Of a DNA stretch of 64,000 nt, positions 1 through 5,578 are shown in pieces. The translations under genes were made by a program, and so were the position numbers. Origin of the DNA: Escherichia coli (GTDB taxonomy: Bacteria > Pseudomonadota > Gammaproteobacteria > Enterobacterales > Enterobacteriaceae); NCBI RefSeq assembly GCF_965641715.1, contig NZ_OZ282453.1, one strand, 5' to 3'. The stretch's first letter is position 1, and each line of letters starts with the position of its first letter. Under the pieces are notes generated by a model. The model saw only the letters and a program-made list of their open reading frames with translations, searched no databases and was not told where the DNA came from.

Positions 1-219
1 CTGCTGGAGTTCGATTACCACGAAGTTCGCACCAAGCGCGCCATTATTGATAACTCGCGCCACGTTATGCTGGTGGTCGATCACTCGAAATTTGGCCGTA
101 ACGCGATGGTCAATATGGGTAGCATCAGCATGGTAGATGCCGTCTACACCGACGCCCCGCCGCCAGTAAGCGTGATGCAGGTGCTGACGGACCACCATAT
201 TCAACTGGAGCTGTGCTGA
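1..219 (+). CDS. glpR: C-terminal fragment of DeoR-family repressor GlpR; 5' end lies outside the window
   Basis: Frame-1 translation from base 1 reads ...[72 protein letters not shown], ending at TGA 217-219. Position next to rtcR matches K-12 synteny. Confidence 0.75.
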   Translation: MLEFDYHEVRTKRAIIDNSRHVMLVVDHSKFGRNAMVNMGSISMVDAVYTDAPPPVSVMQVLTDHHIQLELC

Positions 220-1799
220 TCCTGCACGGCTTCCCACGTCAGACCAAAACGCGCCAGGTATTTGCGTAGCCGATCCGCGTCATTGACGCTGGCTTTGCCC
301 TGGCGCGAAACGTCAAAAAGCTGGCGTCCGGCTGCGGAAAGCGACTTTGCCTGGCGGCAGATTGCGATAACGTGTTCCAGTTGCATACGGTCGAAGAGAT
401 CGATGTTTTCTGCCTCTGCGCCCAGCAACGCCGTAAGCGCGGAGGGGCGGCTCTCCTGCCAGTTATAGCGCAGACGGTTTATCTCATCTTCAACCACGTC
501 CAGAGTAATGCGTCCGCTAGAGGCAAAGGTTGCCATTCGCGTGACGCTGGCAGAAAGCTCGCGAAAGTTACCGCGCCATGTTGCCTGGGGAGATGTCGCA
601 AAGGCCAGCCAGGCGCGCCGCGCTTCGGTGTTAAAACGCACGCTGTCGCCGGTGAGTGAAGCGTGGCGCTCCACTTCATAATCCAGGTTAGGTTCAATAT
701 CTTCCTGACGCTGGCGCAGCCCCGGCAGGGTGAAGGTCCAGAGATTGATCCGCGCGTATAGATCTTCGCGGAATTTGCCATCGGCAACCAGCTGGCGTAA
801 ATCGCGCACCGTTCCGGCGATGAGCTGAAAATCACTGCTCACCTGGCGATCGCTGCCAAACGGATAAAAGGTTTTTTCTTCAATGGCTTTAAGCAGCATT
901 GCCTGTTCGTCTGCGCCCAGTTCGCCAATCTCATCAAGAAACAACATTCCGCCGTTGGCGCTGCGTAATAATCCTTCACGAGATTCCCGCGCCCCGGTAA
1001 ACGCGCCTTTCACATGACCAAACAGCGTCGACATGGCGGTATCGCCGCGCAGGGTTGCGCAGTTCACTTCCACAAACGCGCCGCTAAACTGATGCCGCGC
1101 CTGTTTTAATTCAAATATACGTCGCGCCAGAAATGACTTGCCCGCACCGGTTGGGCCGTTTAGCAGGATCGGTGCGCGGGATTTAATCGCCACTTTTTCG
1201 ATCTGTTCAATCATGCGGTTGAAGTGCGGGTTACGCGTGGCAATGCCGGACTTAAGAAAATCAAGCGTTTGCTGGCGTTCCTCGGCAAAGCGGCTGGCGA
1301 TGGCGTTATAACGGCTTAAATCGAGATCGATAATCGTCACTTCACCTGGGCCGCGCGGCTGTTCTTTTTTGCGCGGAGGTGAAGATTGTATCAACCGGGC
1401 GGGCAGGTAACGCGCTTCCGCCAGCAGAAACCAGCAAATCTGCGCGACGTGGGTGCCGGTGGTGATGTGAATTAAATAGTCTTCTTTTTCTGGCTGAAAC
1501 TCGTAACCACGGGCGAAATCATGCAGGCAGGCGTAAACCTCTTCGAAATCCCACGGGTTATGCAGTTCAATCTCAACGCTCACCACTTCTGTTTCTGGCG
1601 AAACGCTGGCGATATCGCGTTTAAGCGTTTCAAATAGCGAGCGCGAGCGGGCGTCGTGCAATAATTCCAGTCGATCGATGACCAACGATTCTTGCTGGCA
1701 TAAACAGAGCGTCGGACGCCATTTTGACCAGCGCTGACTACCGCGCCCGGCATAATCCAGCACCGTTCCGACAAAGCCAAAAGCCACTTTTTTACGCAT
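201..1799 (-). CDS. rtcR: sigma54-dependent transcriptional activator RtcR (532 aa; CARF-like N-terminal domain, AAA+ core, C-terminal HTH)
   Basis: ORF 201..1967 contains the GAFTGA sigma54-contact motif and Walker-type AAA+ core. Start set at the internal Met of MRKKVAFGF (ATG complement at 1797-1799) to give 532 aa. Divergent from rtcB. Confidence 0.9.
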
Positions 1800-1933
1800 C
1801 TTAGATATCCTTATAAAAGACGATATTTCATTATCGGTAAATCGGCTTTGCGGGAAATCTCCGGTTACGGACGTAAAGATATAATCTTTTTTAAAACAAT
1901 GAATTAAAAAATTAATCTGCTTATTTAATTTTC

Positions 1934-1949
1934 TGGCACGACGGTTGCA
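1934..1949 (+). promoter_or_regulatory. sigma54 (-24/-12) promoter of the rtcBA operon
   Basis: TGGCAC-N5-TTGCA (tggcacgacggttgca) with GG at 1935-1936 and GC at 1947-1948, about 37 bp upstream of the rtcB ATG and facing it. Matches the sigma54 consensus exactly. Confidence 0.8.
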
Positions 1950-1985
1950 ATTATCAGGACATACCAACGAAAAGAGAAAAACAAA

Positions 1986-3212
1986 ATGAATTACGAATTA
2001 CTGACCACTGAAAATGCCCCGGTAAAAATGTGGACCAAAGGCGTGCCGGTAGAAGCCGATGCGCGTCAGCAACTTATTAATACGGCGAAGATGCCGTTTA
2101 TTTTCAAACATATTGCGGTAATGCCTGATGTACACTTGGGTAAAGGTTCCACCATTGGTAGCGTGATCCCGACCAAAGGGGCGATTATTCCGGCGGCGGT
2201 GGGCGTGGATATTGGCTGTGGAATGAACGCGCTGCGTACCGCGTTAACGGCGGCAGATCTGCCTGAAAACCTGGCGGAGCTGCGTCAGGCGATTGAAACT
2301 GCGGTGCCGCACGGGCGTACCACTGGCCGTTGTAAACGTGATAAAGGCGCATGGGAAAACCCGCCTGTTAACGTCGATGCGAAATGGGCTGAGCTGGAGG
2401 CCGGTTATCAGTGGTTAACGCAAAAATATCCGCGTTTCCTTAACACTAACAACTATAAACACCTGGGAACGCTGGGAACGGGTAACCACTTTATTGAAAT
2501 CTGCCTTGATGGGTCGGACCTGGTGTGGATTATGCTGCACTCCGGTTCACGCGGAATTGGTAACGCCATCGGGACTTACTTTATCGATCTGGCGCAAAAA
2601 GAGATGCAGGAAACGCTTGAAACATTGCCGTCGCGTGATCTGGCGTACTTTATGGAAGGTACGGAATACTTTGATGATTACCTGAAAGCCGTGGCCTGGG
2701 CGCAGCTTTTTGCCAGCCTTAACCGCGATGTGATGATGGAAAACGTAGTAACGGCGTTGCAGAGCATTACGCAGAAAACGGTCAGACAGCCACAAACGCT
2801 GGCGATGGAAGAGATCAACTGTCACCACAACTATGTGCAAAAAGAACAGCACTTTGGTGAAGAGATCTACGTGACGCGTAAAGGCGCGGTGTCTGCGCGT
2901 GCTGGTCAATATGGAATTATTCCAGGGTCGATGGGAGCGAAAAGCTTTATCGTCCGTGGGCTGGGAAATGAAGAGTCGTTCTGTTCATGCAGCCACGGTG
3001 CCGGGCGGGTAATGAGCCGTACTAAAGCGAAAAAACTGTTCAGCGTGGAAGATCAAATTCGTGCCACCGCGCATGTGGAATGCCGTAAAGATGCCGAAGT
3101 GATCGACGAAATCCCGATGGCGTATAAAGATATTGATGCGGTGATGGCGGCACAAAGCGATCTGGTGGAAGTTATCTATACCCTGCGTCAGGTGGTGTGC
3201 GTAAAAGGATAA
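1986..3212 (+). CDS. rtcB: RNA-splicing ligase RtcB (408 aa)
   Basis: ORF 1986..3212 begins MNYELLTTENAPVKMWTKGVPVEADARQQLIN, with His/Cys metal-ligand pattern typical of RtcB. Stop codon directly abuts the rtcA start. Confidence 0.95.
   Translation: MNYELLTTENAPVKMWTKGVPVEADARQQLINTAKMPFIFKHIAVMPDVHLGKGSTIGSVIPTKGAIIPAAVGVDIGCGMNALRTALTAADLPENLAELRQAIETAVPHGRTTGRCKRDKGAWENPPVNVDAKWAELEAGYQWLTQKYPRFLNTNNYKHLGTLGTGNHFIEICLDGSDLVWIMLHSGSRGIGNAIGTYFIDLAQKEMQETLETLPSRDLAYFMEGTEYFDDYLKAVAWAQLFASLNRDVMMENVVTALQSITQKTVRQPQTLAMEEINCHHNYVQKEQHFGEEIYVTRKGAVSARAGQYGIIPGSMGAKSFIVRGLGNEESFCSCSHGAGRVMSRTKAKKLFSVEDQIRATAHVECRKDAEVIDEIPMAYKDIDAVMAAQSDLVEVIYTLRQVVCVKG

Positions 3213-5578
<2,366 letters not shown>

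Follow-up and report, generated by a model that had tools for sequence, protein, structure and literature searches.

The genes glpR and rtcR of Escherichia coli converge with no intergenic DNA between them, such that their 3' ends, both stop codons included, share 19 bp. We regard this overlap as very probably a passive and evolutionarily accidental by-product of convergent genes that lack a spacer, rather than as a regulatory device. The junction lies at the start of the window analysed here, a stretch of 64,000 nucleotides that opens within glpR, and comprises the following features.

Positions 1 to 219, plus strand: glpR, codons 181-252 followed by the stop codon TGA at 217-219, with the window opening inside the gene (translation, RefSeq).
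Positions 201 to 1799, minus strand: rtcR, 532 amino acids, whose stop codon TGA is the reverse complement of 201-203 (open reading frame, NCBIfam, Pfam, RefSeq).
Positions 201 to 219: the stretch of 19 bp shared by both genes, encoding GlpR (I)QLELC-stop on the plus strand and RtcR (D)QHSSS-stop on the minus strand, in phase 123:213.
Positions 220 to 232: a variable segment of the junction, between the glpR stop codon and the conserved Trp-Glu codons of RtcR (alignment).

The 3' end of glpR reads CAC CAT ATT CAA CTG GAG CTG TGC TGA on the plus strand, and GlpR accordingly terminates in HHIQLELC. The rtcR open reading frame as called occupies 201 to 1967 on the minus strand, within which the ATG at 1799 is the annotated start. 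RtcR scored 851 bits against the NCBIfam equivalog model NF038308 (RNA_repair_RtcR; cut-off 650), which covered residues 1-527 of 532, and also matched the Pfam domains RtcR and Sigma54_activat; from these matches and the RefSeq annotation, its product is the sigma-54-dependent activator of rtcBA. For GlpR, the full-length homologue from the closest E. coli genome (locus L001) was compared with NF008154 (DeoR/GlpR family regulator), and scored 552 bits against a cut-off of 331 with all residues (1-252 of 252) covered. On the NCBIfam and Pfam evidence both overlap partners pass as genuine protein-coding genes on opposite strands. The original prediction, made from the sequence alone, had named the two genes, placed their stops at 217-219 (plus) and 201-203 (minus) and given them 19 bp in common; the gene identities are borne out by the family matches and RefSeq annotation, and the geometry is confirmed by direct reading of the sequence and by RefSeq.

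The same overlap is annotated in RefSeq for K-12 MG1655, where rtcR ends at 3559866 and glpR at 3559848, as well as for Combat11I9, EC11, NR301, R7, and ExPEC. More broadly, a 60-bp segment spanning the junction was found at a coverage of at least 80% in 5423 of 5426 complete E. coli genomes, in identical form in 2271 of them, and positions 1-2500 of the window matched 5424 of the 5426 (best identity 99.1%; K-12, 97%). The glpR/rtcR overlap is thereby already known, present in the reference annotation, and ordinary, although literature searches returned no paper on it, nor any that links the two genes.

A simple sequence of events would account for this arrangement. GlpR ends at its canonical conserved C-terminus, residue 252, while the RtcR frame would continue beyond its own conserved part, reading the complement of the closing glpR codons as far as the first in-frame stop. 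That stop, TCA on the plus strand, would be formed across the Ile and Gln codons of GlpR (ATT|CAA), and the run-on would add a dispensable tail of five residues, QHSSS, to RtcR. Codon positions 1, 2, and 3 of glpR face positions 2, 1, and 3 of rtcR (phase 123:213), and the wobble positions of the two genes are therefore opposed. Because third codon positions coincide, the mutual constraint on glpR and rtcR should be small; for the same reason the overlap would be nearly cost-free, and would persist. Across the 11 aligned sequences, variation in the Escherichia and Klebsiella overlap is restricted to 204 (CAA/CAG) and 210 (GAG/GAA), to which an E. coli locus with an rtcR-rtcA deletion (L025) adds 207 (CTG/CTT), and all three changes are synonymous in glpR and rtcR alike.

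The overlap's length is also unremarkable. As a null model, we took 40 long open reading frames of the window and determined how far an opposite-strand frame runs into them before its first stop. In the phase that yields overlaps of 4+3k bp, the median run-in was 28 bp (quartiles 4 and 127 bp), and 60% of run-ins were at least 19 bp. An overlap of 19 bp is the expected outcome once convergent genes abut without a spacer, and does not exceed chance. Judged by open reading frame coordinates, glpR/rtcR is the only overlapping pair among approximately seven convergent junctions in the window, and gaps of 26-151 bp separate the genes at five others.

Convergent overlapping gene pairs of prokaryotes constitute a described class, which Rogozin et al. 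are said to have covered in 2002. Lillo and Krakauer (2007; PMC2174442) counted 58 convergent overlaps in E. coli, and nothing in glpR/rtcR differs essentially from the pairs that they describe: it has the same short 3' sharing, defined phase and cross-species conservation, and the same explanation by the position or mutation of a stop codon, to which these authors attribute the phase frequencies of convergent overlaps. Phase 123:213 is the rarest (18%) among convergent overlaps at least 5 nt long (PMC2174442), and is also the phase of the very common 4-bp CTAA/TTAG overlaps, the form taken by the junction in Superficieibacter electus. As in other members of the class, the overlap is retained in more than one genome, here in E. 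coli, other Escherichia, Klebsiella oxytoca, and two other genera. The lack of a rho-independent terminator is likewise shared with most E. coli convergent overlaps, such terminators being predicted for only 20% of convergently overlapping genes (Lillo and Krakauer, 2007; PMC2174442).

Comparison across genera indicates how the geometry of the junction varies. A scan of genome contigs with RtcR recovered 21 loci, none of which belonged to Salmonella, Citrobacter or Enterobacter, and from which most other enteric genera were absent too; the junction alignment comprised 11 sequences from four genera. The overlap measures 19 bp in E. coli, in four further Escherichia species and in K. oxytoca. 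In S. electus it is 4 bp (TTAG): the alignment places nine additional nucleotides after the glpR stop, and glpR ends in TGT TAG as opposed to TGC TGA, creating an antisense TAA stop. In Intestinirhabdus alba seven nucleotides are missing just past the glpR stop, which puts the RtcR tail in another frame, and the overlap extends to 35 bp. The GlpR terminus QLELC-stop is invariant wherever glpR adjoins rtcR in the compared loci. To judge from these alignments, the overlap's length is set by insertions and deletions in 220-232 together with the choice of glpR stop codon, and the RtcR tail would be whatever the antisense of the last glpR codons happens to encode. Residues 528-532 of RtcR (QHSSS), which are encoded in the overlap, lie outside the NF038308 model, and at 13 more distant rtcR loci (including Pseudomonas, Iodobacter, Accumulibacter, and Desulfobulbus) the RtcR tails are unrelated and stop approximately 4 to 11 residues past a conserved W-[DENQ]-x-[ILV] motif.

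Loss of rtcR leaves the glpR end intact. Window positions 1-2500 have no full-length match in approximately 580 of 5424 E. coli genomes; four such strains were sampled, and three were checked (NR301, R7, and the GTDB representative SCPM-O-B-8794). All three retain only a 3' remnant of rtcR (in NR301 and R7, a pseudogene of 399 bp), and the end of glpR and the 19-bp geometry are unchanged. Retention of the same glpR end in strains with rtcR cut to 399 bp fits a passive overlap. The underlying event is a recurrent E. coli deletion that removes rtcB and fuses the 3'-terminal 399 bp of rtcR with the final 420 bp of rtcA.

Positions 3201 to 3987 of locus L003 (E. coli NR301): the rtcR-rtcA fusion, which also occurs at loci L026 and L025.

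The recurrence of this deletion, together with the number of genomes that lack a full-length match, suggests that the rtc RNA-repair locus is dispensable and often lost. Positions 1-2500, which span glpR, rtcR, and rtcB, are also unusually divergent within E. coli, as only three genomes are at least 99% identical to the window over this interval and 1374 fall between 90 and 95%; such a distribution suggests that the rtc locus may comprise deep allelic classes, or may have undergone recombination.

A separate lesion affects rtcA in the window (3213-5560), which is split by an IS4-family element at about 3867-5203, labelled in RefSeq as an IS4-like element IS421 family transposase.

Positions 4037 to 5155, minus strand: transposase open reading frame of the insertion, 372 amino acids.
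Positions 3854 to 3888 and 5182 to 5216: terminal inverted repeats of the insertion, 35 nt.
Positions 3855 to 3866 and 5204 to 5215: direct repeat of 12 bp, GGGAGTTTTCCC.

The rtcA open reading frame stops at 3926 after 237 amino acids, and the cyclase model matches residues 2-220 of these. The element occupies this site in only 2 of 5426 complete E. coli genomes. Elsewhere in the window, a 359-residue frame at 58870-59949 (plus) is almost exactly antisense to a 347-residue frame at 58909-59952 (minus); this is a mechanical call, and nothing was found to support a gene in the antisense frame beyond the open reading frame call itself.

The lack of intergenic DNA has consequences for how transcripts of the two genes end. 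The original prediction held that no terminator lies between glpR and rtcR, and this claim stands, as a consensus terminator scan of positions 1-387 on both strands returned no terminator-like site. A terminator and promoter scan of 1-2500 also returned nothing at the junction; Rfam gave no match in 1-2500 at a permissive E-value, nor in the whole window at gathering thresholds, and ARAGORN found no tRNA. Since an intrinsic terminator does not fit between the genes, each transcript must enter the antisense of its neighbour. The strand-specific mapping of 3' ends that had been proposed as a check on the junction is, in effect, already published for MG1655 (Adams et al., 2021, eLife 10:e62438; PMC7815308): the curated Term-seq tables assign no 3' end to glpR or rtcR, and Supplementary file 2 reports a Rho termination region at 3559514 on the minus strand (the glpR sense strand in MG1655), classed as antisense to rtcR, the position of which is coarse given that the method uses 800-nt windows. 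Without BCM, 154 counts fell upstream of this point and 29 downstream; in its presence the figures were 153 and 256, giving a Rho score of 8.89 (p = 2.7e-27; PMC7815308). A gap-free alignment between K-12 and the window locates the equivalent position.

Position ~553, plus strand: equivalent of the MG1655 Rho region, 334 nt past the glpR stop and antisense to rtcR.

The Rho region implies read-through of glpR-sense RNA into antisense rtcR. The TERMITe supplements make no mention of either gene, and the MG1655 literature data, which come from a strain other than that of the window, contain no sharp 3' end at the gene boundary. The Rho region and the missing Term-seq end together fit Rho-dependent termination of glpEGR inside antisense rtcR, with no discrete terminator at the junction. 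By extension from MG1655, Rho would end the glpEGR transcript in the strain of the window several hundred nucleotides into antisense rtcR, and the rtcR transcript would presumably be ended likewise inside antisense glpR. One qualification concerns the reference strain itself: MG1655 glpR (3559848-3560605) has lost one base pair at nt 151 (codon 51) and is marked as a pseudogene, such that its 3' two-thirds are untranslated, and the loading of Rho may consequently occur earlier there than in a glpR+ strain such as that of the window. The C/G skew relevant to Rho loading past the glpR stop is only mild (C>G at 183-312; C/G 1.1-1.4), and is not diagnostic.

Termination of this kind leaves an alternative to consider, namely that convergent transcription renders glpEGR and rtcR mutually repressive, either through RNA polymerase collision or through cleavage of double-stranded RNA by RNase III. 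We think this improbable. The penetration of glpR-sense transcription by approximately 334 nt into antisense rtcR in MG1655 makes complementary RNA possible, and glpR-rtcR adjacency is kept in Escherichia, K. oxytoca, Intestinirhabdus, and Superficieibacter; yet neither the overlap length (4, 19 or 35 bp) nor the RtcR tail is conserved, no conserved RNA structure was found on the four-genus alignment, rtcR is destroyed by deletion in the three checked strains while the glpR end is unchanged, and literature searches uncovered nothing that ties glycerol regulation functionally to RNA repair. Both glpR and rtcR encode regulators and are presumably expressed at low levels, for which reason collisions between polymerases would be rare. 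Precedents do exist, in the antisense regulation of mscL by arfA (PMC10070815), and in programmed RNA polymerase collisions at convergent genes (Wang et al., bioRxiv 10.1101/2022.10.23.513370). The arfA and mscL genes resemble glpR and rtcR in their tail-to-tail arrangement in Enterobacteriaceae, and would do so too in having a transcript complementary to the 3' coding sequence of the partner, but in that system an effect on expression has been shown experimentally and co-localisation is enriched (PMC10070815), whereas the overlap geometry of glpR/rtcR is variable, rtcR is often deleted, and no expression effect is known. The more specific proposal, that read-through of glpEGR (or the reverse) tunes the RNA-repair activator RtcR to the expression of the operon of the glycerol-regulon repressor, or vice versa, through polymerase collision or RNase III, and that the pair thus constitutes a second case akin to arfA/mscL, strikes us as highly doubtful. 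A passive overlap would, by comparison, need no regulatory coupling of GlpR and RtcR.

Bidirectional intrinsic terminators between convergent genes have reportedly been described by Ju et al. in 2019. A related possibility here is that a compact bidirectional terminator, or a stabiliser of 3' ends, is embedded in the coding sequence at the junction, where RNA folding predicts a stem-loop.

Positions 207 to 233, plus strand: predicted hairpin with a 10-bp stem and a 7-nt loop, UGAUCCU, which holds the glpR stop codon; no U tract.

We consider it most unlikely that this hairpin serves either role. The 10-bp stem is predicted on plus-strand RNA, and rho-independent terminators within the coding sequence of the partner have been reported for some convergently overlapping E. 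coli genes (PMC2174442); against this, the hairpin lacks a U tract on the plus strand and was missed by the terminator scan, and neither glpR nor rtcR has a reported Term-seq 3' end (PMC7815308). On the minus strand the same segment is weak, with two G-U pairs becoming A-C mismatches, and minus-strand RNA over the junction folds no better than shuffled sequences (z = -0.44). Plus-strand RNA from 140 to 330, by contrast with its shuffles, folds better (z = -4.4), with hairpins at 207-233 and 250-307; beyond coding-sequence composition, a passive overlap does not account for this value, and it counts against that reading. A proper U tract, as would be expected of a bidirectional intrinsic terminator, follows neither hairpin.

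Conservation of the predicted structure was assessed on the four-genus alignment, in which 89.3% of cells were paired, compared with 88.9% in shuffles, and helix 1 of the 207-233 hairpin had 85.7% of cells paired. Two alignment cells among the 11 sequences had changes on both sides of a pair, and no compensatory changes maintaining pairs were found beyond those in controls (covariation score 0.062, versus 0.038-0.067 for slid controls). In Escherichia sp. E1V33, E. whittamii, and K. oxytoca the 3' arm of the 207-233 hairpin has decayed, and in I. alba it is deleted, without compensation. The second hairpin, longer and imperfect, contains an inverted repeat of 9 bp without mismatches, CGCGCCAGG...CCTGGCGCG, which encloses inner pairings and falls within rtcR coding sequence close to its 3' end. 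Read in the rtcR sense, it precedes a UUUU run, 45 nt ahead of the rtcR stop, and thus resembles a weak terminator, but it is only partly kept in K. oxytoca and S. electus, with no covariation. From the alignment, we treat both hairpins as probably incidental, and not as selected structures. The sites at which bidirectional terminators or programmed polymerase collisions (Wang et al., bioRxiv 10.1101/2022.10.23.513370) stop convergent transcription, likewise in a very short space, have a stem-loop between the genes, A and U tracts flanking it, and sharp 3' ends; glpR/rtcR is unlike these, as the two genes have no DNA between them, a U tract is missing, no sharp 3' end has been reported, and Rho would act downstream.

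That the overlap is an artefact of annotation or sequencing, with one stop misplaced, merits virtually no credence: nothing was found in its favour except that RtcR is five residues longer than the family model, whereas stop codons, unlike start codons, are fixed by sequence, the equivalog matches of both proteins reach the terminus or stop no more than five residues short of it, and the presence of the junction in all but three of the complete E. coli genomes and in four other Escherichia species effectively refutes it, and excludes the stop-moving sequencing correction that the original prediction had named as its refutation.

Antisense coupling, if true, would connect glycerol regulation with RNA repair, and nothing that we found points there. 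Understood as a passive overlap, the glpR/rtcR junction matters little in itself, and its value lies instead in being a textbook-clean example of how a convergent overlap originates and varies: one junction, at which the overlap measures 4, 19 or 35 bp depending on an insertion or deletion and on the stop codon of the partner gene. It also illustrates how genes that lack a spacer would depend on Rho termination inside the antisense strand of the neighbour. In practical terms, deletion or C-terminal tagging of either glpR or rtcR must spare the partner gene.
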